Part shown: positions 3,526-25,433 of the stretch, piece after piece
How positions within the stretch are numbered: position 1 is the first letter of the stretch
How the letters are laid out: each line of letters begins with the position of its first letter
Translations under genes and position numbers: made by a program
The notes under the pieces: model-generated
The model's input: the letters and a program-made list of their open reading frames with translations, nothing else
Told to the model about the DNA's origin: nothing
Databases searched by the model: none
IMG/VR virus record: IMGVR_UViG_2534682327_000012
Direction: 5' to 3' (one strand)
Length of the DNA: 31,984 bases
Source: a virus
Lineage: Duplodnaviria; Heunggongvirae; Uroviricota; Caudoviricetes

Positions 3526-5800
3526 AGCCTCCGGGCATTTTGTCCCTCCGTCAGCATTTGCTGCAGGCACCGGTAAGGCGTTTACCGGTGCTTATGCATG
3601 GAACGCGCCACGCGAGGCTGTCGGGCGCGAAAGACCCCTTACACGTGACGAGATGCGTCAGGTGCAAGGTGTTTTATCCACGATTAACCGCCTGCCTTAC
3701 TTTTTGCGCTCGCTGTTTACGTCACGCTATGACTACATCCGGCGCAATAAAAGCCCGGTGCACGGGTTTTATTTCCTCACATCCACTTTTCAGCGTCGTT
3801 TATGGCCGCGCATTGAGCGTGTGAATCAGCGCCATGAAATGAACACCGACGCGTCGATGCTGTTTCTGGCTGAGCGTGACCACTATGCGCGCCTGCCGGG
3901 AATGAATGACAAGGAGCTGAAAAAGTTTGCCGCCCGTATCTCATCGCAGCTTTTCATGATGTATGAGGAACTCAGCGATGCCTGGGTGGATGCGCATGGC
4001 GAAAAAGAATCACTGTTTACGGATGAGGCTCAGGCTCACCTGTATGGTCATGTTGCTGGCGCTGCACGAGCTTTCAATATTTCCCCTCTCTACTGGAAAA
4101 AATACCGTAAAGGACAGATGACCACGAGGCAGGCATATTCTGCCATTGCCCGTCTGTTTAACGATGAGTGGTGGACTCATCAGCTTAAAGGCCAGCGTAT
4201 GCGCTGGCATGAAGCGTTACTGATAGCTGTCGGGGAGGTCAATAAAGACCGTTCTCCTTATGCCAGTAAACACGCCATTCGTGATGTGCGTGCGCGCCGC
4301 CAGGCAAATCTGGAATTTCTTAAATCGTGTGATCTCGAAAACAGGGAAACCGGCGAGCGCATCGACCTTATCAGTAAGGTGATGGGCAGTATTTCTAATC
4401 CTGAAATTCGCCGGATGGAGCTGATGAACACCATTGCTGGTATTGAGCGTTACGCCGCAGCAGAGGGTGATGTGGGGATGTTTATCACGCTCACCGCGCC
4501 GTCAAAGTATCACCCGACACGTCAGGTTGGAAAAGGCGAAAGTAAAACCGTCCAGCTAAATCACGGCTGGAACGATGAGGCATTTAATCCAAAGGATGCG
4601 CAGCGTTATCTCTGCCGTATCTGGAGCCTGATGCGCACGGCATTCAAGGATAATGATTTACAGGTCTACGGTTTGCGTGTCGTCGAGCCACACCACGACG
4701 GAACGCCGCACTGGCATATGATGCTTTTTTGTAATCCGCGCCAGCGTAACCAGATTATCGAAATCATGCGTCGCTATGCGCTCAAAGAGGATGGCGACGA
4801 AAGAGGAGCCGCGCGAAACCGTTTTCAGGCGAAACACCTTAATCGGGGCGGTGCTGCGGGGTATATCGCGAAATACATCTCAAAAAACATCGACGGCTAT
4901 GCACTGGATGGTCAGCTCGATAACGATACCGGTAAGCCGCTTAAAGATACTGCCGCGGCTGTTACTGCATGGGCGTCAACGTGGCGCATCCCGCAATTTA
5001 AAACGGTTGGTCTGCCGACAATGGGGGCTTACCGTGAACTACGCAAATTGCCGCGCGGCGTCAGCATTGCTGATGAGTTTGACGAGCGCGTCGAGGCTGC
5101 ACGCGCCGCCGCAGACAGTGGTGATTTTGCGTTGTATATCAGCGCGCAGGGTGGGGCAAATGTCCCGCGCGATTGTCAGACTGTCAGGGTCGCCCGTAGC
5201 CCGTCGGATGACGTTAACGAGTACGAGGAAGAGGTCGAGAGAGTGGTCGGCATTTACGCGCCGCATCTCGGCGCGCGTCATATTCATATCACCAGAACGA
5301 CGGACTGGCGCATTGTGCCGAAAGTTCCGGTCGTTGAGCCTTTGACTTTAAAAAGCGGCATCGCCGCGCCTCGGAGTCCTGTCAATAACTGTGGAAAGCT
5401 CACTGGTGGTGATACTTCGTTACCGGCTCCCACACCTTCTGAACACGCCGCAGCAGTGCTTAATCTGGTTGATGACGGTGTTATCGAATGGAATGACCCG
5501 GAGGTCGTGAGGGGGCTCAGGGGCGCATTAAAACACGGCCTGAGAACACCAAATCGTCAGCAAAGAAACGGAAGCCCGCTAAAACCACATGAAATTGCAC
5601 CATCGGCCAGGCTGACCCGGCCGGAACGATTGCAAATTACCCGTATCCGCGTTGACCTTGCTCAGAACGGTATCAGGCCTCAGCGATGGGAGCTTGAGGC
5701 GCTGGCGCGTGGCGCGACCGTAAATTATGACGGGAAAAAATTCACGTATCCGGTCGCTGATGAGTGGCCGGGATTCTCAACAGTAATGGAGTGGAAATGA
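3515..5800 (+). CDS. A: Replication initiation protein A (rolling-circle HUH endonuclease), 761 aa
   Basis: Translation from MAVKASGHFVPPSAFAAGTGK matches P2 gpA as I recall it; HUH motif TPHWHMMLF and Tyr motif AAGYIAKYISKNIDGY present; the track ORF begins 14 codons upstream at 3473, but the ATG at 3515 gives the P2-like N-terminus. Confidence 0.93.
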   Translation: MAVKASGHFVPPSAFAAGTGKAFTGAYAWNAPREAVGRERPLTRDEMRQVQGVLSTINRLPYFLRSLFTSRYDYIRRNKSPVHGFYFLTSTFQRRLWPRIERVNQRHEMNTDASMLFLAERDHYARLPGMNDKELKKFAARISSQLFMMYEELSDAWVDAHGEKESLFTDEAQAHLYGHVAGAARAFNISPLYWKKYRKGQMTTRQAYSAIARLFNDEWWTHQLKGQRMRWHEALLIAVGEVNKDRSPYASKHAIRDVRARRQANLEFLKSCDLENRETGERIDLISKVMGSISNPEIRRMELMNTIAGIERYAAAEGDVGMFITLTAPSKYHPTRQVGKGESKTVQLNHGWNDEAFNPKDAQRYLCRIWSLMRTAFKDNDLQVYGLRVVEPHHDGTPHWHMMLFCNPRQRNQIIEIMRRYALKEDGDERGAARNRFQAKHLNRGGAAGYIAKYISKNIDGYALDGQLDNDTGKPLKDTAAAVTAWASTWRIPQFKTVGLPTMGAYRELRKLPRGVSIADEFDERVEAARAAADSGDFALYISAQGGANVPRDCQTVRVARSPSDDVNEYEEEVERVVGIYAPHLGARHIHITRTTDWRIVPKVPVVEPLTLKSGIAAPRSPVNNCGKLTGGDTSLPAPTPSEHAAAVLNLVDDGVIEWNDPEVVRGLRGALKHGLRTPNRQQRNGSPLKPHEIAPSARLTRPERLQITRIRVDLAQNGIRPQRWELEALARGATVNYDGKKFTYPVADEWPGFSTVMEWK

Positions 5801-6252
5801 TGGCAAAAATTCACGAGGTAAAGCTGCACGCAAAATATTTTGACCTTGTGCTGGAAGGAAAGAAACGCGCAGAGTTTCGGAAAAATGACCGTAATTATGA
5901 GCGCGGGGACACGTTGATTTTGCATGAATGGGTGCAGGGTGTGTTTACGGGGCGAAAGGTTGAAGCCCGGATAACAGATGTTACTGACCTGTCAGACTGG
6001 CTGGAAGACTATGTCTTGCTAAGTATTGAGCTGCTTAATACAGGCGCATATGAGATTGTGAACTGGAAAGAACTTAGTGAGCGTGGCCTGGTATTCAGAA
6101 TTAATCATGAAATTATGCATCAGCTCGGCCTTGCTGTTATGTATGAACCAGAGACGGGGATGTCTGGCGGGGCAATGGTCGCCACGGATGGAGCATGGAA
6201 CTATTCAGATGAACAGATGGAGCGTGCACAGCAAAACGGGTGGCTTGGATAA
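5797..6252 (+). CDS. ASCH/PUA-like small protein (DUF3850-like), ~151 aa
   Basis: ATG overlaps the A stop; N-terminus KIHEVKLHAKYFDLVLEGKKRAEFRKNDRNYERGDTLILHEW resembles the DUF3850/ASCH family as I remember it (domain call moderate). Confidence 0.7.
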   Translation: MMAKIHEVKLHAKYFDLVLEGKKRAEFRKNDRNYERGDTLILHEWVQGVFTGRKVEARITDVTDLSDWLEDYVLLSIELLNTGAYEIVNWKELSERGLVFRINHEIMHQLGLAVMYEPETGMSGGAMVATDGAWNYSDEQMERAQQNGWLG

Positions 6253-6530: not shown

Positions 6531-7265
6531 CTATTTATTAAAAAATTCTAGAAGTGTAATTCCATTGGCTCCAAGGCTTACAAAGCCTTCAATACTATTA
6601 ATTGATGTGATTGTCTTTTTCAGAATGTTCTTTAGCTTTGAGCCTTCTTCGGTCGTAGTTATTACTTCGTTAAATTGCTCAGACATACAAGCATGCCCCA
6701 TTGTGGCTTCTGTTGCTGAAATTATTGGCTCAATACCAGTTATTTCATAGTCGTCAAAAGCTCTAATCATGTTGTCAATGTAATATAATATTTCTTTTTT
6801 TAGGTTAATTGGGAAGTCAGAATTAATTATGGATTCCTTCAGTTCTAATAATTGCCCCTTTATTTCAATTAACTGTTCATCTTTAAGTTTTCCAATCTGA
6901 CCTTTGGTCTTGAATAGGACTGATATCATCCCTAATTCATTTATGGCATTATCAGAGATTCTTTGGAGGGAATGGGACAGAGATTCTCCCAGATTTAAGT
7001 TTTCGAAAAAATCATTAACACTGGGCCTCCAGTGTGGTGCTGTGATTTCATCTTCTGGAAAGTAGTCTTTTAATGTGTTATCTATTTTTTTAGGCAAGCT
7101 CATGATTTTGGAAATCTTATCCCATAAGATGGTTTTATTATCTTCAGAACCCTCTAATTCAAACATTTGTAATAAAGCACGCTTTACCGTAATGTTATAT
7201 GGTTGTTGTGCTTTTAGCTTGGTGAAAAACTCTCGTAAGGTCAGTGCTGAATTGTCGATGTACAT
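6531..7265 (-). CDS. Low-GC cargo protein of unknown function in the tin/old slot, 244 aa
   Basis: Long uninterrupted ORF on the strand opposite the early operon, visibly AT-rich compared with flanking phage core; sits between gene A and cos where P2 carries tin/old; no motif I can recognise. Confidence 0.75.
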   Translation of the reverse strand: MYIDNSALTLREFFTKLKAQQPYNITVKRALLQMFELEGSEDNKTILWDKISKIMSLPKKIDNTLKDYFPEDEITAPHWRPSVNDFFENLNLGESLSHSLQRISDNAINELGMISVLFKTKGQIGKLKDEQLIEIKGQLLELKESIINSDFPINLKKEILYYIDNMIRAFDDYEITGIEPIISATEATMGHACMSEQFNEVITTTEEGSKLKNILKKTITSINSIEGFVSLGANGITLLEFFNK

Positions 7266-8690: not shown

Positions 8691-10462
8691 CAGTAAAACT
8701 CCAGAATGGTGGATGTCAGCGGGGTGCTGATACCGGCGGTGAGTGGCTCATTTAACAGGGCGTGCATGGTCGCCCAGGCGAGGTCGGCGTGGCTGGCTTC
8801 CTCGCTGCGGCTGGCCTCATAGGTGGCGCTGCGTCCGCTGCTGGTCATGGTCTTGCGGATAGCCATAAACGAGCTGGTGATGTCGGTGGCGCTGACGTCA
8901 TATTCCAGACAGCCACGACGGATAACGTCTTTTGCCTTGAGCACCATTGCGGTTTTCATTTCCGGTGTGTAGCGGATATCGCGCGCGGCGGGATAGAACG
9001 AGCGCACGAGCTGGAACACGCCGACACCGAGGCCGGTGGCATCAATACCGATGTATTCGACGTTATATTTTTCGGTGAGTTTTCGGATGGATTCCGCCTG
9101 GGTGGCAAAGTCCATGCCTTTCCACTGGTGACGCTCAAGTATTCTGAATTTGCCACCGGCCACCACCGGCGGTGCCAGTACCACGCATCCGGCGCTGTCG
9201 CCACGGTGTGACGGGTCGTAACCAATCCATACCGGGCGGGAGCCGAACGGATTGGCGGCAAACGGCGCATAGTCTTCCCATTCTTCCAACGTGTCGACCA
9301 TGCAGCGTTGCAGCTCCTCGAACGGGAACACCGATGCCTTGTCGTCAACAAATTCACACATGAACAGGTTTTTAAAATCGTCGGCGCTGTTTTCGCGTTT
9401 GAGCTGCTCAATGTCGAACAGCGTGCAGCCGCCTTTCAGGGCGTCCTCAATGGTGACAATCTGTCGCCACTGGCCGTCCGCACAGAGAAGCCCACCGGCA
9501 AGGGCGTTATGACTGACGTCGATTTCCACACGTTCGGCGGCGCTGGCGCGTCCCCGGTTAAACAGTTCACCCGACCAGAACGGGTAGGCGTCGTGCGCCA
9601 GCGTGGACGGGGTGGAGAAATAGGTCGAGCGCAGGTGACTCTGTGAGGCCATACCTGATGCCACCTTACGCAGTACCTGAAAATTCGGGATCCAGAAAAT
9701 CTCATCGACGTACAGGTCGCCGTTATGACTCTGCGCGGTGTTGGAGTTGGTGCCGAGAAAAATCAGTTTTGCGCCGTTATTGCCCAGGACAATCGGGTCA
9801 CCGGTCAGGTCAACGTCAACCAGACGGGCAAAGGCGATGATGTATTCGCGGAACACATACGCCTGCGTTTTACTGGCCGACAGAAAAATCTGGTTATGAC
9901 CGGTTTTCAGGGCACGCAGCAGCGCCTCGCGGGAAAAATAAAACGTCGCGCCAATCTGGCGGGATTTCAGGATATCGCGGATGCGGTGCTCAAGCCCGGC
10001 GCGATACCAGTGCAACTGATAGTCGAAAGACTGCTCAAAGAAAATCTGCTCCAGCTTTTCGATGGCCTCGTCACTGAAAAAATTCTTTTTCGGTTTGCGA
10101 CGCCCGCCTTTGTTGCGGTTAGCGACGTTCGGATTAAGGTCTGCCTCGTTGCCGGTCTGACTGTAGCGGTTTACCCGTGCCAGTCGTTCAATCTGGCGTC
10201 CGAGCAGGTCAATTTCCTTGAAGTCACCACCGGTTTTCTGCGGTTTGATGATGAGCTGGGTCAGTCGCGCTTCCAGACTCATTTCGACACGGCTGATGGG
10301 GGCAACGCTGTCCCAGCCGTCGCGCTGTTTCCAGCTCTGCACCGTCGGGCGTTTCATCTGCAACATGGCGGCAATCTGCGGCACGGAAACCCCCTGCCAG
10401 TACAGCAGCGCCGCCTGACGACGCGGGTCGTGTAAAAGAGTGGTGTCTGTGGTGATGGTCAT
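8690..10462 (-). CDS. P: Terminase large (ATPase) subunit P, 590 aa
   Basis: Translation from MTITTDTTLLHDPRRQAALLYWQG matches P2 gpP as I recall it; the track ORF extends 10 codons upstream to 10492, but the ATG at 10462 gives the P2 N-terminus. Confidence 0.92.
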   Translation of the reverse strand: MTITTDTTLLHDPRRQAALLYWQGVSVPQIAAMLQMKRPTVQSWKQRDGWDSVAPISRVEMSLEARLTQLIIKPQKTGGDFKEIDLLGRQIERLARVNRYSQTGNEADLNPNVANRNKGGRRKPKKNFFSDEAIEKLEQIFFEQSFDYQLHWYRAGLEHRIRDILKSRQIGATFYFSREALLRALKTGHNQIFLSASKTQAYVFREYIIAFARLVDVDLTGDPIVLGNNGAKLIFLGTNSNTAQSHNGDLYVDEIFWIPNFQVLRKVASGMASQSHLRSTYFSTPSTLAHDAYPFWSGELFNRGRASAAERVEIDVSHNALAGGLLCADGQWRQIVTIEDALKGGCTLFDIEQLKRENSADDFKNLFMCEFVDDKASVFPFEELQRCMVDTLEEWEDYAPFAANPFGSRPVWIGYDPSHRGDSAGCVVLAPPVVAGGKFRILERHQWKGMDFATQAESIRKLTEKYNVEYIGIDATGLGVGVFQLVRSFYPAARDIRYTPEMKTAMVLKAKDVIRRGCLEYDVSATDITSSFMAIRKTMTSSGRSATYEASRSEEASHADLAWATMHALLNEPLTAGISTPLTSTILEFY

Positions 10463-10635
10463 GAATACCTCGCCGTGATGAATACACGGCAAGGCTACTG
10501 AGTCGCGCCCCGCGATTCGCTAAGGTGCTGTTGTGTCAGTGATAAGCCATCCGGGACTGATGGCGGAGGATGCGCATCGTCGGGAAACTGATGCCGACAT
10601 GTGACTCCTCTAATCACTATTCAGGACTCCTGACA

Positions 10636-15961: not shown

Positions 15962-16391
15962 TGCCGTCACGGTGCTGAAAACTAACCCCGATATGCTGCG
16001 GATATTCGTGGATAACGGGAGTATTGCCTCCACACTGGCGGCGTCGCTGTCATTCGAAAAGCGTTACACGCTCAATGTCATTGTGACCGACTTTACCGGT
16101 GATTTTGACCTGCTCATCGTGCCGGTGCTGGCGTGGCTGCGGGAAAATCAGCCCGACATCATGACCACCGACGCAGGCCAGAAAAAGGGCTTCACGTTTT
16201 ATGCAGACATCAACAATGACAGCAGCTTTGATATCAGTATCAGCCTGATGCTGACCGAGCGCACGCTGGTCAGTGAGGTTGACGGTGCGCTGCATGTGAA
16301 GAATATCCCGGAACCCACGCCGCCGGAGCCGGTCACCCGCCCGATGGAGCTTTATATCAATGGCGAACTGGTGAGCAAGTGGGATGAATGA
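15924..16391 (+). CDS. R: Tail completion protein R, 155 aa
   Basis: Size and position in P2 gene order. Confidence 0.88.
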   Translation: MLKPDSLRRALTDAVTVLKTNPDMLRIFVDNGSIASTLAASLSFEKRYTLNVIVTDFTGDFDLLIVPVLAWLRENQPDIMTTDAGQKKGFTFYADINNDSSFDISISLMLTERTLVSEVDGALHVKNIPEPTPPEPVTRPMELYINGELVSKWDE

Positions 16392-16836
16392 GTTTAAGCG
16401 TTTTGAAGACCGGCTGACCGGACTGATTGAGTCGCTGTCACCGTCAGGGCGTCGACGACTGAGTGCCGAACTGGCGAAACGTCTGCGGCAGAGTCAGCAG
16501 CGTCGGGTGATGGCACAGAAAGCCCCGGACGGCACACCCTACGTGCCACGCCAGCAGCAGAGCGCCAGAAAAAAGACTGGTCGTGTTAAGCGAAAAATGT
16601 TTGCGAAACTTATCACCAGTCGTTTTTTGCATATCCGCGCCAGCCCGGAACAGGCATCAATGGAGTTTTACGGCGGGAAGTCACCGAAAATCGCCAGCGT
16701 GCATCAGTTCGGTCTGTCGGAAGAAAACCGGAAAGACGGTAAGAAAATTGATTATCCGGCGCGTCCTCTGCTCGGCTTTACCGGTGAGGATGTGCAGATG
16801 ATTGAAGAGATTATCCTGGCTCACCTTGAGCGTTAG
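16384..16836 (+). CDS. S: Tail completion protein S, 150 aa
   Basis: Size and position in P2 gene order. Confidence 0.88.
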   Translation: MNEFKRFEDRLTGLIESLSPSGRRRLSAELAKRLRQSQQRRVMAQKAPDGTPYVPRQQQSARKKTGRVKRKMFAKLITSRFLHIRASPEQASMEFYGGKSPKIASVHQFGLSEENRKDGKKIDYPARPLLGFTGEDVQMIEEIILAHLER

Positions 16837-16907: not shown

Positions 16908-17693
16908 TTATGAGTGATTTTTATTTGATGCTTTGTATTCTACAACCTTCTTATTGGCGTAAAGGAATTTTGTATATGACAGGAATATAACCAGACCTGA
17001 AATGAAATAGATGAGGGATATTATTAATAATGCTTTTTTTTGGCTGTTATTATCTTTAATCTCCTGACTTAACCATTCCGAGTCCTCCTCGTTTAGCTGT
17101 AAGAGCTTATTGCAGGCGATCTCAGGAAGTGTGTCTTTTATAAATACGTTTCGTAGCCTCTTGCAATCGGCAAGGCTATAAGTTTTATTGAATTCAACTG
17201 CTTTATTCTTGAAGGATAAGAGAACTTTGTCACTATAAACATAGTACATCATGTTTTTATATGGTATGCCTATGGCATCCCTTACTATAACGGATTGTTC
17301 GTTGTGTATGTAACATGCGAGGAGAATGCAAAAAATACTGGACAGAATTACAATTATTGTTTTAATTATGTGTGGTGTTTTTGTTATGTCACCCCAGATG
17401 CGAGTAAGGAAAAAACACGATGTTTTTAGTTTTCCATCAATCAGTCCCTGCTGTATCATTCTCACATTTTCAATGCCTGATACATTGATTCCGTTAATTA
17501 TTTTAAATAGTTGAATGTCGCGCCACTCGCGGTCAAGTCTTTTTAATTTTTTGTCTGAATACCCAAAATTGAAATAATGTGCAATAAGCCTCATAAGGTT
17601 ACTTTTACCAAAGCTAAAAAATGCTAATACTGCAAAGCTACAAAGGAAAAAAACGATTAGCCCCCACACATTAGTCACATTATAGCTGACCAT
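16908..17693 (-). CDS. Low-GC cargo membrane protein of unknown function in the orf30 slot, 261 aa
   Basis: Strong RBS AAGGAG 6 nt upstream of the ATG (minus strand); three hydrophobic segments (N-terminal, central, C-terminal); AT-rich; on the strand opposite the late tail operon. Confidence 0.8.
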   Translation of the reverse strand: MVSYNVTNVWGLIVFFLCSFAVLAFFSFGKSNLMRLIAHYFNFGYSDKKLKRLDREWRDIQLFKIINGINVSGIENVRMIQQGLIDGKLKTSCFFLTRIWGDITKTPHIIKTIIVILSSIFCILLACYIHNEQSVIVRDAIGIPYKNMMYYVYSDKVLLSFKNKAVEFNKTYSLADCKRLRNVFIKDTLPEIACNKLLQLNEEDSEWLSQEIKDNNSQKKALLIISLIYFISGLVIFLSYTKFLYANKKVVEYKASNKNHS

Positions 17694-17776
17694 TACGCTC
17701 TCCTTGAATGTTGTCTGGTAGTTCTACAAATGAATCCAGATAGCATAACTTTTATATATTGTGCAATCTCACATGC

Positions 17777-18412
17777 ATGAACACTCTCGCAAATATTCAG
17801 GAACTCGCGCGCGCACTGCGCAACATGATTCGCACCGGCATTATCGTCGAAACCGACCTTAACGCCGGTCGCTGCCGTGTGCAGACCGGCGGCATGTGCA
17901 CCGACTGGCTTCAGTGGCTGACCCATCGCGCCGGACGTTCGCGCACATGGGGGGCACCTTCCGTAGGGGAACAGGTGCTGATTCTGGCCGTGGGCGGTGA
18001 ACTCGACACGGCGTTCGTTCTGCCGGGGATTTATTCCGGCGATAACCCCGCGCCGTCTGCGTCGGCGGATGCCCTGCATATCCGTTTCCCTGACGGGGCG
18101 GTGATTGAGTATGAACCTGAAACCAGTGCGCTCACGGTAAGCGGAGTTAAAACGGCCAGCGTGATGGCTTCTGATTCTGTTACTGCCACGGTGCCGGTGG
18201 TTATGGTGAAAGCATCAACCCGCATCACCCTGGACACACCGGAAGTGGTCTGCACCAACAAACTGACTACCGGCACGCTGGAAGTGCAGAAGGGCGGGAC
18301 GATGCGCGGCAACATTGAACACACCGGCGGTGAACTCTCATCAAACGGTAAGGTACTGCATACCCATAAACACCCCGGCGACAGCGGCGGCACAACCGGG
18401 AGTCCTTTATGA
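17777..18412 (+). CDS. V: Baseplate spike/assembly protein V, 211 aa
   Basis: Translation from MNTLANIQELARALRNMIRTGIIVETDLNAGRCRVQTGGM matches P2 gpV as I recall it; the track ORF starts with a TTG at 17759. Confidence 0.9.
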   Translation: MNTLANIQELARALRNMIRTGIIVETDLNAGRCRVQTGGMCTDWLQWLTHRAGRSRTWGAPSVGEQVLILAVGGELDTAFVLPGIYSGDNPAPSASADALHIRFPDGAVIEYEPETSALTVSGVKTASVMASDSVTATVPVVMVKASTRITLDTPEVVCTNKLTTGTLEVQKGGTMRGNIEHTGGELSSNGKVLHTHKHPGDSGGTTGSPL

Positions 18413-20202: not shown

Positions 20203-22497
20203 ATGAGCACAAAATTCAGAACCGTTATCACCACTGCCGGTGCAGCAAAGCTGGCAGCGGCAACCGCACCGGGAGGGCGGAAGGTCAACATTACCACGAT
20301 GGCCGTCGGGGATGGCGGTGGTAAATTGCCTGTCCCGGATGCCGGACAGACCGGGCTTATCCACGAAGTCTGGCGACATACGCTGAACAAAATCAGCCAG
20401 GACAAACGAAACAGTAATTATATTATCGCAGAGCTGGTTATTCCGCCGGAGGTGGGCGGTTTCTGGATGCGTGAGCTTGGCCTGTACGATGATGCGGGAA
20501 CGTTAATTGCCGTGGCGAACATGGCCGAAAGTTATAAGCCAGCTCTTGCCGAAGGCTCAGGGCGTTCGCAGACCTGTCGCATGGTCATCATCGTCAGCAG
20601 TGTGGCCTCGGTGGAGCTGACCATTGACACCACAACGGTGATGGCGACACAGGATTACGTTGATGACAAAATTGCAGAGCACGAACAGTCACGACGTCAC
20701 CCGGACGCCTCGCTGACCGCAAAAGGTTTTACTCAGTTAAGCAGTGCGACCAACAGCACGTCTGAAACACTGGCCGCAACGCCGAAAGCGGTAAAGGCCG
20801 CCTATGACCTTGCTAACGGGAAATATACCGCACAGGACGCTACCACTGCGCGAAAAGGTCTTGTCCAGCTCAGTAGTGCCACCAACAGCACGTCTGAAAC
20901 GCTTGCGGCAACGCCAAAGGCGGTTAAGACAGCGTATGACCTTGCTAACGGGAAATACACTGCACAGGACGCCACTACAGCGCGAAAAGGTCTTGTCCAG
21001 CTCAGTAGCGCCACCAACAGCGATTCTGAAACGCTTGCGGCAACACCAAAGGCGGTTAAGACAGCGTATGACCTTGCTAACGGGAAATACACTGCACAGG
21101 ATGCCACCACAGCGCGAAAAGGTCTTGTCCAGCTAAGTAGTGCCATCAACAGCGATTCTGAAACGCTGGCCGCAACGCCAAAAGCAGTGAAGTCTGCCTA
21201 TGACAATGCTGAAAAACGTCTTCAGAAAGATCAGAACGGTGCGGATATTCCGGGAAAGGATACCTTCACGAAAAATATCGGTGCCTGTCGTGCTTATAGC
21301 GGCGCTTTGAGCACTGAAGCCGGAAACTGGACAACCGCTCAGTTTATTGAATGGCTGGATTCCCGTGGTGCATTTAATCATCCGTACTGGATGTGCAAAG
21401 GCTCCTGGTCATATGCAAATAACAAAATCATTACGGATACCGGATGTGGTGATATCCACCTGGCTGGTTGTGTCGTCGAGGTCATGGGAACTAAATCTGC
21501 AATCACTATCCGAGTGACCACGCCAACAACATCAAGCGGTGGCGGTACAACCAGCGCGCAATTCACTTACATAAATCATGGGGACGGCTACTCCCCCGGC
21601 TGGCGTCGTGACTGGAATCGTCAGGGCGACTCAATGACCGGAACGATTAATCAGGATGGCGGAAGCCAGAATGCCTATATGTCTACGGCCTTATGTTCAG
21701 GCACCAGAGGCGGCAAAAAATATCTCAGAAAGTTTCGTGGTGGAGAAGGAGATACTATCTGGCATGAAACAGTTCAGGGCGGGGTAATTCGCTGGGCGAC
21801 AGGAAACAATGACGCTCAGGAAGAATTATCACTCAGCTCCGCTTATGGTCTCCGTTCAAGAGGTGAAATTACATCACTCAGTGCTAATGGTCTGCGCATT
21901 GCTTATGGCAATTATGGATTCTTTATCAGGAATGATGGCGGCAGCACATATTTAATGCTGACGGCCTCTGGCGATAAATTTGGGACATGGAACGGCTTAA
22001 GACCGCTGACTATCAATAACGCCAATGGCGGAGTGTCAATGGGGCATGGCCTGAGTGTTACAGGTGATATTGTCTCAAGTACCAAAGTACGTGCCGGTAG
22101 CGGGAAAAAGTTCACGGTCAGCAGCAGCAATACATCCACGAAGGAAGCCGCATTCAATTTGTGGGGAAACTCAAGTCGTCCTGTGGTGGCTGAATTAGGT
22201 GATGATGCAGGCTGGCATTTTTACAGTCAGAGAAATACAGATAACAGCATCACTTTTGCTGTTAACGGGCAGGTATCACCATCTAACTATAGTAATTTTG
22301 ATTCCCGTTATGTACGCGATATCCGGCTTGGGACTCGAGTTGTCCAGACCATGAAGAAAGGGGGGATGTATGAGAAAGCAGGGCACGTAATTACCGGGCT
22401 TGGTATTATCGGTGAAGTCGATGGTGATGACCCCGCAGTATTCAGACCAATACAAAAATACATCAATGGCACATGGTATAACGTCGCACAGGTGTAA
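20203..22497 (+). CDS. H: Tail fibre protein H, 764 aa, with an internal tandem repeat array
   Basis: Conserved N-terminal part MSTKFRTVITTAGAAKLAAATAPGG; Ser/Thr/Gly-rich C-terminal receptor-binding part; followed by tail fibre assembly gene G. Confidence 0.9.
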   Translation: MSTKFRTVITTAGAAKLAAATAPGGRKVNITTMAVGDGGGKLPVPDAGQTGLIHEVWRHTLNKISQDKRNSNYIIAELVIPPEVGGFWMRELGLYDDAGTLIAVANMAESYKPALAEGSGRSQTCRMVIIVSSVASVELTIDTTTVMATQDYVDDKIAEHEQSRRHPDASLTAKGFTQLSSATNSTSETLAATPKAVKAAYDLANGKYTAQDATTARKGLVQLSSATNSTSETLAATPKAVKTAYDLANGKYTAQDATTARKGLVQLSSATNSDSETLAATPKAVKTAYDLANGKYTAQDATTARKGLVQLSSAINSDSETLAATPKAVKSAYDNAEKRLQKDQNGADIPGKDTFTKNIGACRAYSGALSTEAGNWTTAQFIEWLDSRGAFNHPYWMCKGSWSYANNKIITDTGCGDIHLAGCVVEVMGTKSAITIRVTTPTTSSGGGTTSAQFTYINHGDGYSPGWRRDWNRQGDSMTGTINQDGGSQNAYMSTALCSGTRGGKKYLRKFRGGEGDTIWHETVQGGVIRWATGNNDAQEELSLSSAYGLRSRGEITSLSANGLRIAYGNYGFFIRNDGGSTYLMLTASGDKFGTWNGLRPLTINNANGGVSMGHGLSVTGDIVSSTKVRAGSGKKFTVSSSNTSTKEAAFNLWGNSSRPVVAELGDDAGWHFYSQRNTDNSITFAVNGQVSPSNYSNFDSRYVRDIRLGTRVVQTMKKGGMYEKAGHVITGLGIIGEVDGDDPAVFRPIQKYINGTWYNVAQV
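20722..21204 (+). repeat. In-frame 132-bp (44-aa) tandem repeat, about 3.7 copies, within H (unit KGLVQLSSATNSTSETLAATPKAVKTAYDLANGKYTAQDATTAR)
   Basis: Copies begin at 20722, 20854, 20986 and 21118; copies 2 and 3 are nearly identical at the DNA level. Confidence 0.9.
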
Positions 22498-22500
22498 TTT

Positions 22501-23028
22501 ATGCAGCATTTAAAAAATATTACTGCGGGTAATCCAAAAACTGTTGCCCAATATCAACTGACAAAAAATTTTGATGTTATCTGGTTATGGTCCGAAGAGG
22601 GAAAAAACTGGTATGAGGAAGTAAGTAATTTTCAGGCAGACACGATAAAGATTGTTTACGACGAGAATAATATAATTGTCGGCATCACCAGAGATGCTTC
22701 AACGCTTAACCCTGAAGGTTTTAGCGTTGTCGAGGTTCCTGATATTACCGCCAACCGACGTGCTGATGACTCAGGGAAATGGATGTTTAAGGATGGTGCC
22801 GTGATTAAGCGGATTTATACGGCAGACGAACAGCAACAACAGGCAGAATCACAAAAGGCCGCGTTACTTTCCGAAGCGGAAAGCGTTATTCAGCCACTGG
22901 AGCGCGCTGTCAGGCTGAACATGGCAACAGATGAGGAGCGTAGCCGACTGGAAGCATGGGAACGCTACAGTGTTCTGGTCAGCCGTGTGGATCCTGCAAA
23001 TCCTGAATGGCCGGAAATGCCGCAATAA
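22501..23028 (+). CDS. G: Tail fibre assembly protein G, 175 aa
   Basis: Immediately downstream of H; size and order. Confidence 0.85.
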
Positions 23029-23157
23029 GTGATATGATCTCTTGTGTTAGTTAACATAGCTATAGTACAGAGTAAGGCCTAATCTGACAGTCCGCTCTGT
23101 GCTAGGAGCGGACATTATCAACATCATGCTATGTTAATGTATAAAGTGAAGATAAAT

Positions 23158-23166
23158 TGATATAAT
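23158..23166 (+). promoter_or_regulatory. Candidate extended -10 promoter element TGaTATAAT upstream of the slot-3 cargo gene
   Basis: TG-n-TATAAT seen in the AT-rich G/FI intergenic region; no good -35 hexamer found. Confidence 0.3.
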
Positions 23167-23416
23167 AAGGCCACCATGAATATTTCAGAACCTTGTCAAA
23201 AGGTTTGCCCATACTCTAGTCTTGCAATGTGTAGTTGATAGTTCCACTGAGGAGGTTCTTCGACATTCTTTATAAAAATGTACATTTTCATCAATAATAA
23301 GAGGTAAAAGGGCTTTAATAGTTTTTGTGGATGTTATTTCTACTCATAAATTTTGAGATAAGTATTGAGTTGAGATAAAGTTAAACTCGTTAAATTCACC
23401 TTTAAAAGGATAAAAC

Positions 23417-23944
23417 ATGGACTGGAAAGATCTTGCATCAACCGCTGTGTATACAGGTATGACTGATGAAAATGAAAGCATATGGGAACGTGTTGATGGG
23501 GTTGACGTTGCCTTCATAGGTGCCTTTCTTACTGCGCACTTGAGCCTTGAAAAGTATATTACTGATTATCTTGGATTAAGATATCCTTCGTTAGCTTGGG
23601 GTGATGCAAAACTCACATTTTCACAAAAAATAGCTTTAATACAACATGAGCCTGCAAAACCCCCTTATGATGAAATATATTTAAGAATAAAAGACTTTAA
23701 CAGCATAAGAAATAAAATCAGTCATCAATTGAATTATCAGATTACGGATAAAGAAAAAAGTAAGTTTGTGGACTTCTATATGAAGATTACTAAAGCCAGT
23801 AAAACTAAACCAAATATTGATATTGATAACATGGCAGATTTGTTGGGTTTTTTCGTATCGATGACAAAATCCTATTTTGCTAGTGCTATTTCTTATTATC
23901 ATTATAATAAAAAGGTTGCAGGTAAAAGTAATAAAATTGATTAA
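23417..23944 (+). CDS. Low-GC cargo protein in the Z/fun slot, 175 aa; candidate HEPN-like RNase (motif R98-N-K-I-S-H103)
   Basis: RBS AAGGA ~7 nt upstream of the ATG; AT-rich; RNKISH encoded at 23708..23725 fits the HEPN Rx4-6H motif with the usual Asn after Arg; a terminator follows downstream. Confidence 0.75.
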   Translation: MDWKDLASTAVYTGMTDENESIWERVDGVDVAFIGAFLTAHLSLEKYITDYLGLRYPSLAWGDAKLTFSQKIALIQHEPAKPPYDEIYLRIKDFNSIRNKISHQLNYQITDKEKSKFVDFYMKITKASKTKPNIDIDNMADLLGFFVSMTKSYFASAISYYHYNKKVAGKSNKID

Positions 23945-24119
23945 TAAAACTGGACTTAGGGATAATTAATATATAGACGTTCTATCATTTTTAGAGTGTG
24001 CGGCAGCTCCATACATTCATGCGGATGTCAGCACCTCGCTCAAAGCAGACAGTCAGATTTGATAGCGTTTGGACTATGTAAATAGTCAGTTGGAAAATGA
24101 GTGAGTACAAATCAGGACA

Positions 24120-24146
24120 GGCGGGCGAATTGCCCGCCTTTTCTTT
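24120..24146 (+). terminator. Rho-independent terminator: GGCGGGC, loop GAATT, GCCCGCC, then TTTTCTTT
   Basis: 7-bp GC-rich stem, 5-nt loop and U-tract seen directly, ~175 bp downstream of the slot-3 cargo gene and ~100 bp upstream of FI. Confidence 0.75.
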
Positions 24147-24242
24147 ATCTGTTGTTTCATCCACTGACCAGCCAGGTCAAATAGCGTCTCATGCTCTGCA
24201 CAACAGAAAATAGTTGCACCCATTAACCACGGAGTTAAACGG

Positions 24243-25433
24243 ATGAGTGACTATCATCACGGCGTGCAGGTGCTGGAGATTAACGACGGCACCCGCGTCA
24301 TTTCCACCGTATCCACTGCCATTGTCGGCATGGTCTGCACGGCCAGCGATGCGGATGCGGAAACCTTCCCCCTCAATAAACCTGTGCTGATTACCAATGT
24401 GCAGAGCGCAATTGCAAAGGCCGGTAAAAAAGGCACGCTGGCGGCGTCGCTGCAGGCCATCGCTGACCAGTCAAAACCGGTCACCGTTGTCGTGCGTGTG
24501 GAAGACGGCACCGGCGACGACGAGGAAACGAAACTCGCGCAGACCGTTTCCAATATCATCGGCACCACCGACGAAAACGGTCAGTACACCGGACTGAAAG
24601 CCCTGCTGGCGGCGGAGTCGGTAACCGGTGTTAAACCGCGTATTCTCGGCGTGCCGGGACTGGACACCAAAGAGGTGGCTGTTGCACTGGCATCAGTCTG
24701 TCAGAAGCTGCGCGCTTTCGGGTATATCAGCGCATGGGGCTGTAAAACCATTTCCGAGGTGAAAGCCTACCGTCAGAATTTCAGCCAGCGTGAGCTGATG
24801 GTCATCTGGCCGGATTTCCTCGCATGGGATACGGTCAGCAGCACCACCGCCACCGCGTATGCCACCGCCCGTGCGCTGGGTCTGCGCGCTAAAATCGACC
24901 AGGAGCAGGGCTGGCATAAAACGCTGTCCAACGTCGGGGTAAACGGTGTTACCGGCATCAGCGCATCTGTATTCTGGGATTTGCAGGAGTCCGGCACCGA
25001 TGCTGACCTGCTTAACGAGTCAGGCGTCACTACGCTGATTCGCCGCGACGGTTTCCGATTCTGGGGTAACCGTACCTGCTCTGATGACCCGCTGTTCCTT
25101 TTTGAAAACTACACCCGCACCGCGCAGGTGCTGGCCGACACGATGGCTGGGGCGCACATGTGGGCGGTGGACAAGCCCATCACCGCAACGCTGATTCGCG
25201 ACATCGTTGACGGCATCAATGCCAAATTCCGTGAGCTGAAAACAAACGGCTATATCGTGGATGCGACCTGCTGGTTCAGCGAAGAATCCAACGATGCGGA
25301 AACCCTCAAGGCCGGAAAACTGTATATCGACTACGACTATACACCGGTACCTCCTCTTGAAAACCTGACCCTGCGCCAGCGTATTACCGATAAATACCTG
25401 GCAAATCTGGTCACCTCGGTTAACAGCAATTAA
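24243..25433 (+). CDS. FI: Tail sheath protein FI, 396 aa
   Basis: RBS GGAG upstream; size and order. Confidence 0.92.
   Translation: MSDYHHGVQVLEINDGTRVISTVSTAIVGMVCTASDADAETFPLNKPVLITNVQSAIAKAGKKGTLAASLQAIADQSKPVTVVVRVEDGTGDDEETKLAQTVSNIIGTTDENGQYTGLKALLAAESVTGVKPRILGVPGLDTKEVAVALASVCQKLRAFGYISAWGCKTISEVKAYRQNFSQRELMVIWPDFLAWDTVSSTTATAYATARALGLRAKIDQEQGWHKTLSNVGVNGVTGISASVFWDLQESGTDADLLNESGVTTLIRRDGFRFWGNRTCSDDPLFLFENYTRTAQVLADTMAGAHMWAVDKPITATLIRDIVDGINAKFRELKTNGYIVDATCWFSEESNDAETLKAGKLYIDYDYTPVPPLENLTLRQRITDKYLANLVTSVNSN

Follow-up and report, generated by a model that had tools for sequence, protein, structure and literature searches.

A small gene at positions 23417-23944 of the viral record IMGVR_UViG_2534682327_000012 (IMG/VR, Caudoviricetes; 31,984 nucleotides (nt), hereafter the window) lies between the P2-type tail genes G and FI and encodes a protein of 175 amino acids (aa). 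On the computational evidence gathered here, we favour, with reasonable rather than high confidence, its identification as a standalone HepS-type HEPN endoribonuclease, which a P2-like Escherichia coli prophage carries in its G-FI (Z/fun) slot as lysogenic-conversion cargo. The parts of this reading differ in strength. The HEPN fold is predicted with near certainty from structure models, and ribonuclease (RNase) activity is likely, judging by the conserved active-site motif. A role against phages is on the probable side by analogy, and activation by a phage protein with tRNA as the target, as in HepS, is a tentative proposal about which we have some doubt. An original prediction, made from the DNA alone, had put forward a small HEPN protein in this slot as a candidate abortive-infection RNase, and this proposal is supported in silico by the predicted fold, the conservation of the motif, the homology to HepS and the nature of the slot.

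The gene and its catalytic motif

The basic description of the locus held up throughout: a 175-aa open reading frame (ORF) is found on the plus strand between genes that Pfam identifies as G and FI, it has its own ribosome-binding site (RBS), and its residues 98 to 103 read RNKISH. The lower guanine-plus-cytosine (GC) content claimed relative to the flanking late genes was also recovered, with values of 0.29-0.37 over about 23000-24050 against 0.48-0.60 in both flanks. The elements concerned are:

22501-23028, plus strand: P2 gene G (tail fibre assembly protein), left flank of the slot (Pfam Caudo_TAP, E-value 1.6e-36; same annotation in RefSeq and phage records)
23406-23410, plus strand: Shine-Dalgarno sequence AAGGA, 6 nt 5' of the ATG, read from the sequence
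23417-23944, plus strand: gene for the 175-aa solo HEPN protein (phrog_5483), ATG start, a predicted dormant endoribonuclease and candidate abortive-infection effector
23537-23551, plus strand: second conserved block, codons H41-E45 in the first core helix (G35-x2-L38-x2-H41-L42-x2-E45), at least 90% conserved in a 125-sequence alignment (A2)
23708-23725, plus strand: HEPN Rx4-6H catalytic motif, codons R98-N99-K100-I101-S102-H103, invariant in alignments A1 and A2
24243-25433, plus strand: P2 gene FI (tail sheath), right flank of the slot (Pfam Phage_sheath_1, Phage_sheath_1C and Gp18_domIII_N)

HEPN nucleases are metal-independent endoribonucleases whose composite active site forms where two motifs meet in a dimer. 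Taken alone, the motif is weak evidence, and the signal for HEPN comes from conservation and fold. Indeed, an Rx4-6H pattern arose in 25% of composition-matched shuffles of the 175-aa protein, and the stricter R[NDH]x3-5H in 4%. The criterion set for HEPN domains is an Rx4-6H motif in which a polar residue (N, D or H) follows the arginine (PMC3710099).

Conservation and predicted fold

The close relatives of the protein form a small Enterobacterales family of 24 clusters at 59% identity or more, in which R98, N99 and H103 are invariant (alignment A1) inside the block D-F-N-x-I-R-N-K-[IL]-S-H-x-L-N-Y. An exhaustive profile search placed this family within a superfamily of standalone proteins of about 150-220 aa, comprising 368 clusters at E-values up to 1e-3, 89 of them at 1e-10 or below. 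R-N-x3-H is present in 139 of 147 distant relatives, with the consensus R-N-[KR]-[LFI]-[SAG]-H. Alignment A2 is made of 125 sequences that share only 20-29% identity with the query, and its sole invariant columns are R98, N99 and H103; these sequences were chosen for bearing the motif, and the unbiased figure is the 139 of 147. Conservation of 90% or more was found in A2 for G35, L38, H41, L42, E45, L66, F68, K71 and N95. HEPN families typically have a second conserved acidic residue (PMC3710099), and E45 in the first core helix is conserved at this level, although no conserved lysine or arginine stands four residues further on, as in the typical HEPN pattern E-x3-[KR]. Ratios of non-synonymous to synonymous substitution rates across the family (0.13-0.23) indicate purifying selection.

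Compared with Pfam, superfamily members gave weak, sub-threshold matches, mostly to families of the HEPN clan (RiboL-PSP, Cthe_2314, DUF4145, Csm6_HEPN, MAE_28990 and Abi_2). An AlphaFold2 model built from the 125 diverse sequences reached a mean predicted local distance difference test score of 92.4 and a predicted template modelling score of 0.83, with an architecture of a single, all-alpha HEPN domain (a four-helix up-down core) preceded by a short N-terminal hairpin; no other Pfam domain was recognised. Its structural matches include AF0298, HI0074, TTHA0636, several HEPN toxins, AbiA and the HEPN domain of sacsin. An earlier model of lower confidence gave the same picture, with HepS as the sole confident Foldseek match (probability 0.99). 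Because of the conservation of the motif, the HEPN-clan matches and the models, a HEPN fold with a conserved active-site motif can be taken as established as far as computation allows. Both computational tests that had been proposed for fold and motif, prediction of the protein's structure and conservation of R98 and H103 in homologues, thus gave results in favour of a HEPN domain, the two residues being invariant in close homologues and conserved in distant ones.

Three very large proteins, P0039 (4271 aa), P0147 (3978 aa) and P0152 (2278 aa), also matched the family profile, each of them in 7-16 distinct segments that have the motif region (profile positions ~84-145) at their centre. These may be compositional or repeat artefacts, or multiple HEPN-like repeats.

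Relation to HepS

HepS (STM14_3211 of the Salmonella prophage Gifsy-1; PDB 9OIJ and 9OIK) is a proven single-protein HEPN abortive-infection tRNase (Sargen et al., Nature 2026, PMC13043305). At rest it is a tetramer, with N- and C-terminal segments that lack order while the protein is free. The tetramer is opened when the tail-tip protein J of a siphovirus binds directly to these segments, and the activated enzyme, in which R100 and H105 are essential, cuts the anticodon loops of tRNAs (PMC13043305).

When the profile of the window family was compared with the PDB, HepS came first (E-value 2.4e-7), followed by the HEPN domain of Csm6. Full-length HepS was recovered from a viral contig with a query of two joined fragments taken from PDB alignments; a tblastn search of the phage collection with a HepS fragment and a homologue search with a 43-aa HepS fragment returned no match. 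Aligned by hhalign, the window family scored 95.7% against the single HepS sequence and 98.1% against a 17-sequence alignment of the HepS family (E-value 7e-14, 91 columns, 20% identity, residues 35-127 of the window protein on 38-129 of HepS). An iterative hidden Markov model search in the opposite direction, seeded with the close HepS family and with E-values scaled to 7e8 sequences, retrieved 8 superfamily members in its first round and the window protein in the second (E-value 2e-12). The authors of the HepS study define HepS homologues by five rounds of PSI-BLAST and list 393 of them (PMC13043305), and since the HepS-seeded search reaches the window protein in round 2, that definition would very probably include the window family.

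In the alignment, R100, N101, H105, I107 and Y109 of HepS correspond to R98, N99, H103, L105 and Y107 of the window protein, and HepS needs the first three of these residues for its activity (PMC13043305). Both are small standalone HEPN proteins (175 aa, against 210 aa in HepS) and both are prophage cargo. A fixed partner gene, which HepS lacks, is probably lacking in the window family too, as its neighbours vary and it occurs alone in several loci, although four loci have a second small gene in tandem and the window holds the remnant of one. The two proteins have in common an identical motif block, R-N-K-x-[SA]-H-x-[LI]-x-Y-x-[IL]-T-D. They differ in that overall identity is about 20%, they belong to different groups of PHROG (5712 for HepS, 5483 for the window protein), and the window gene occupies a tail-gene slot of its carrier, a P2-type myovirus. 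By sequence the two proteins are distinct lineages, and both lineages are present in Pectobacterium sp. PL64. A match to a characterised non-defence protein had been named as an outcome that would count against the prediction; none was found by sequence, the nearest characterised relative being HepS, a defence protein. Following the description of HepS, the window gene is very probably a new, divergent member of an already known type, a predicted prophage-borne solo HEPN abortive-infection nuclease.

Other abortive-infection proteins, namely AbiV, AbiD/AbiF (Abi_2), AbiJ and AbiU2, resemble the window protein in their HEPN fold, small size, association with mobile elements and predicted role as RNase effectors (Anantharaman et al. 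2013, PMC3710099). However, no Pfam or PADLOC model of those families matches the protein, and no partner RNA of the AbiF type was found. Furthermore, AbiV lacks the canonical Rx4-6H (PMC3710099), whereas this motif is invariant in the window family.

The G-FI slot

The identification of the region between G and FI as the Z/fun slot, and as a hotspot for cargo, was confirmed by comparison with other P2-like phages. The same place is occupied by orf44 in Wphi, by a SMEK-domain gene in vB_EcoM-12474III and by fun(Z) in P2, the last two on the opposite strand, and a 2026 survey of P2-like phages mentions a tail-gene hotspot. The gpA-gpQ locus, which Rousset et al. (2022) investigated, is a separate hotspot. 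According to the annotation of the P2 record (NC_001895), cloned fun(Z) blocks the growth of T5. The window gene resembles fun(Z) in its G-FI position and as non-essential lysogenic-conversion cargo, but the two are unrelated in sequence (blastn homology is limited to the backbone), and fun(Z), besides its opposite orientation, is about three times longer. The slot comprises the following elements:

23090-23113, plus strand: GC-rich hairpin GTCCGCTC-N8-GAGCGGAC at the end of the conserved left backbone, without a T-run, read from the sequence
About 23117-24018, no strand assigned: swapped AT-rich cargo cassette of the G-FI slot, about 0.9 kilobases (kb) (blastn against Wphi, 12474III and P2; GC content 0.29-0.37)
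24119-24149, plus strand: rho-independent terminator with a 9-base-pair (bp) stem, 7 GC pairs and a T-run (terminator scan; kept in P2, Wphi, 12474III and 569R9)
24150-24219, plus strand: P_F late promoter region, Ogr activator site about 24150-24175, transcription start about 24217-24219 (homology to P2 record NC_001895, pairwise alignment)

Backbone homology, as detected by blastn, stops at 23112-23116 and resumes at 24019-24035, P2 matching only from 24035. The terminator, a hairpin at 24119-24139 followed by TTTTCTTTATC, lies 175 nt beyond the stop codon of the HEPN gene and directly adjoins the P_F activator site. It had been read as the terminator of an autonomous moron; a hairpin with a T-run is indeed present, but by sequence comparison it is part of the P2 backbone and not the cargo's own, because it is located in the segment common to P2, Wphi and vB_EcoM-12474III, which hold other cargo. 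Nevertheless, it would still stop rightward transcripts from the HEPN gene. The region 23900-24149 (plus strand) also gave a sub-threshold Rfam match to the Salmonella Hfq-binding small RNA STnc150 (24.7 bits against a gathering threshold of 60, E-value 0.002-0.008), with a weaker overlapping match to isrF; the STnc150 match is probably not meaningful and rests mainly on the backbone terminator hairpin and AU-rich sequence.

Distribution in E. coli and related phages

The cassette was found at 99.8-99.9% identity in 49 of 5,426 complete E. coli genomes, with the gene labelled 'hypothetical protein' (WP_001461859.1 in RefSeq); matches to the slot flanks occur in about 2,023 E. coli genomes, these 49 included. 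One sequenced Peduovirus, vB_EcoM-569R9, carries the same cassette, and its gene is the only sequenced variant with the truncation described below. Its deposited record (ON470601.1; locus L002, 3001-3552) contains a run of N inside the homologous gene, which yields 13 X residues across the catalytic motif and, because of this run, an apparent protein identity of 91%. The true differences from the window gene amount to three synonymous and three non-synonymous substitutions.

Genomic contexts of relatives

Relatives of the gene, and of a second small gene described below (phrog_12893), occur in the following settings:

L012 and L031: P2/186-like prophages, 3' of the tail-fibre gene, beside AbiGi
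L014: P2/186-like prophage, beside the CI repressor, with a PIN-domain gene
L029: P2/186-like prophage, directly 3' of gene A, beside HicB and an FRG-domain gene
L011, 4284-4784 and 5001-5510: Pectobacterium chromosomal island, with a tandem paralogue of 34% identity and a DUF2971 gene
L020, 5181-5693 and 6001-6519: Dryocola chromosomal island, with the upstream-type gene (phrog_12893, KRNWLAH), a SIR2 gene (PDC-S25) and a resolvase
L021, 5194-5706 and 6001-6513: Superficieibacter, with a phrog_12893 gene bearing KRNWLAH in tandem
L022, 6001-6516 and 6564-7190: Enterobacter pasteurii island, with a true AbiV gene 48 nt downstream (PADLOC E-value 3e-73) followed by DUF2971 (PDC-S31)
L032: upstream-type gene without the family gene, beside a reverse transcriptase and a SLATT_5 gene

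In four of these loci (L011, L020, L021 and L022) a tandem second gene lies on the same strand as the family gene, and its identity differs by locus; in L012, L014, L029 and L031 the family gene has no tandem partner. Distant superfamily members adjoin DarT-Macro (DarTG) or HigB-HTH (HigBA) modules, or stand alone among housekeeping genes, and a scan of genome contigs with the close-family profile returned three loci only. The pattern is that of an autonomous, mobile and defence-associated gene. An obligate two-gene system was considered as the principal explanation and rejected, since each gene occurs without the other.

The AAGGAT block around the Shine-Dalgarno sequence is kept in L011, L020 and L021. 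Moreover, copies of the boundary sequences of the slot, namely the left hairpin segment (23090-23113) and a 16-26 bp piece of the right backbone (24035-24060), flank islands of 4.5-5.4 kb in loci devoid of the P2 genes G, FI and FII (L021 at 5102-5140 and 10584-10609; L011 at 4115-4148 and 8691-8706), the 16-bp match in L011 being marginally significant. The left hairpin segment also flanks the island in L020, another non-P2 locus. Together, these sequences suggest recombination at short anchors as the means by which cassettes travel between P2 hotspots and chromosomal islands.

Proposed mechanism and points that weigh against it

By analogy with HepS, the lysogen would produce an inactive homo-oligomer of the protein that keeps the paired Rx4-6H motifs away from each other. 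On infection, a phage protein, probably different from the trigger of HepS, would then bind the variable N- and C-terminal parts, which are unlike the termini of HepS, and bring R98 and H103 of paired subunits together into a working site. The opened enzyme might cut cellular RNA, most likely tRNA anticodon loops, leading to a translation stop and abortive infection, and the carrier P2 phage would be spared if the trigger is one that P2 does not make. The neighbouring upstream gene having decayed, the surviving HEPN gene is presumed to act alone.

A more speculative extension, to which we give little credence, is that this lineage has replaced the trigger-binding termini of HepS and so senses not the siphovirus J tail tip but some other phage component. 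T5-like or contractile-tailed phages are a possible source, one that would be in keeping with the P2 carrier. Under the same proposal, the tandem HEPN-like pairs may be layered or hetero-oligomeric sensor pairs, built and broken by cassette exchange at short boundary sequences.

Several results weigh against the identification of the gene as an active, HepS-type defence nuclease expressed in the lysogen. First, homology to HepS is confined to the catalytic core, and the trigger-binding termini (S13/D15 and S202/T203 in HepS) have no counterpart in the alignment. The tetramer-interface residues F66, K78 and L83 map to W61, A73 and E78, of which only the aromatic position is conservative, and the tRNA-contacting K71 is replaced by L66. 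Because the termini are unaligned and these residues are not conserved, the oligomeric state, the trigger and the RNA target are not transferable from HepS. Second, the 175-aa protein matched no model of Pfam, NCBIfam or PADLOC (no Pfam match above the cut-off and 0 PADLOC families). The statement that it belongs to no named family is correct for these three collections; on the other hand, the protein is assigned to phrog_5483 (no known function), and the iterative search links it to HepS. Third, a promoter scan found promoter-like hexamer pairs at chance level (6, against 5.0 +/- 2.2 expected), so that the upstream promoter originally proposed lacks statistical support and a promoter active in the lysogen has no sequence support. 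Fourth, the top structural matches of the model are regulators of the MtlR/YggD group, some of them non-catalytic. Finally, the gene appears by sequence to be what is left of a former two-gene cassette, and its divergence from the 569R9 allele since the truncation (the six substitutions given above) is too small to show selection.

A decayed upstream gene

The former two-gene cassette is best seen in the DNA immediately upstream of the HEPN gene, which is not plain spacer over its 300 nt:

23176-23289, plus strand: remnant of a pseudogene, comprising the ~46 initial codons of another small gene, of the phrog_12893 type and with a HEPN-like motif in intact copies, 78-83% DNA identity to Dryocola L020

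The similarity covers 23082-23289 of the window and 5087-5317 of L020; the L020 stretch takes in the start of a 170-aa gene, namely its RBS, ATG and first ~46 codons. In a three-way alignment, homology then jumps to position 23336 of the window, equivalent to 5920 of L020, which places the junction at 23290-23335 and the loss at about 556 nt. In addition, the remnant has lost 19 nt at about 23235 and runs into a stop at 23236-23238, after codon 20; the resulting 20-codon ORF, MNISEPCQKVCPYSSLAMCS followed by the stop, corresponds to MDTSEHCKEVYAYFGLAMYR…. The intact upstream protein (phrog_12893, unknown function) carries a K-R-N-W-L-A-H motif. It was considered as an AbiV-like protein or a paralogue of the window family and both were ruled out, given that blastp found no similarity, hhalign gave 0.8% and the PDB no match; the short RNxxAH motif is all they have in common. 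An imperfect palindrome (ATTCTTTATAAAAATGTAC / GTACATTTTCATCAATAAT) lies inside the remnant at 23265-23298, about 120-150 nt 5' of the HEPN start, and is partly kept upstream of the gene in Pectobacterium; an operator or promoter element is one possibility, relic coding sequence another.

The single-gene character attributed to the cassette is therefore only partly correct: there is one intact HEPN gene, with lone copies of relatives elsewhere, but the cassette formerly held two genes, the first of which has decayed. This history lends some weight to the explanation that the surviving ORF is an orphaned relic, in which the functional unit was the two-gene cassette (subunits of a hetero-oligomer, or a regulator with its effector) and the remaining protein is inactive, or altered and decaying. 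In addition to the clear remnant and the limited divergence since the truncation, the truncated form is the only one in E. coli: none of the 52 genomes in which it was found retains over 28% of the upstream region, and the intact upstream gene was not detected in any of the 5,426 complete genomes. Intact tandems of the upstream gene and the HEPN gene survive in Dryocola and Superficieibacter, and other second HEPN genes accompany the family in Pectobacterium (the paralogue) and Enterobacter (AbiV). Against this explanation, the second genes across loci are of three unrelated kinds, they are missing altogether from L012, L014, L029 and L031, and the upstream-type gene stands alone in L032. In the window, the ORF is intact and has kept every conserved residue, its Shine-Dalgarno sequence is intact as well, and HepS, a HEPN protein of the same type, works alone (PMC13043305). 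We consider an orphaned relic improbable.

Other explanations

Slightly less probable again is an active HEPN RNase that serves the prophage in another way, either as an addiction or stabilisation toxin or by modulating transcripts of the host or the phage in lysogeny or late development. The gene shares its strand with the late H-G operon, from which read-through could reach it, as only the hairpin without a T-run (23090-23113) follows G and the first strong terminator is that at 24119; HEPN domains also act in toxin-antitoxin systems and in RNA processing (PMC3710099). Nonetheless, neither an antitoxin gene nor an antitoxin RNA adjoins it: no ORF of an MNT-type antitoxin is present beside the HEPN gene, and a search for a partner RNA of the ToxIN/AbiF type found no tandem repeats, an unremarkable upstream fold (z = +0.79), no Rfam family that reached threshold and, apart from the RBS region, no conserved non-coding element upstream. 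The gene is also dispensable cargo, as indicated by its presence in only 49 of the genomes that match the slot flanks, its relatives have known or candidate defence genes as repeated neighbours, and its nearest characterised relative acts in defence.

Finally, a non-catalytic RNA-binding or regulatory protein with a HEPN fold, of the MtlR/YggD type (PDB 3BRJ, 3C8G and 6KCR), is very improbable: the likeness is structural only, with 13-17% identity, no Pfam MtlR match and, instead of a mannitol or sugar operon, prophage tail genes around the gene; R-N-x3-H, lost in a large part of the MtlR family (PMC3710099), is kept across sequences of only 20-29% identity, which is the pattern of a catalytic site, and the sequence profile points to the nucleases HepS and Csm6 HEPN.

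Other islands and repeats in the window

Two further islands of low GC content were observed. One (GC content 0.37), in the classic gpA-gpQ (old/tin) hotspot, contains a 244-aa ORF (6531-7265, minus strand) that has no match in Pfam or PADLOC and adjoins a gene for an ASCH/DUF3850 and DUF7415 protein (5764-6252, plus strand); this ORF is possibly a further uncharacterised cargo or defence gene. The other (GC content 0.36) separates the tail gene S (16384-16836) from the baseplate spike gene V (17759-18412) and holds, on the opposite strand, a 261-aa ORF (16908-17693, minus strand), again with no Pfam or PADLOC match. In addition, the tail-fibre gene H (20203-22497) contains, at about 20700-21250, about four tandem copies of a unit of ~42 aa (…ATPKAVK.AYDLANGKYTAQDATTARKGLVQLSSATNS.SETLA…), and this repeat is mirrored by spurious long ORFs in other reading frames and on the complementary strand.

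Implications

If the prediction is true, a defence gene belonging to a superfamily of at least 368 clusters at 50% identity has been overlooked by current annotation tools. The decayed upstream gene and the shared boundary sequences provide a concrete example of the remodelling of hotspot cassettes in P2-like phages. The HepS model, a dormant solo HEPN nuclease switched on by a phage protein, would extend to P2-type myoviral prophages and to other sensor termini, and a comparison of both lineages could reveal how trigger specificity is encoded.

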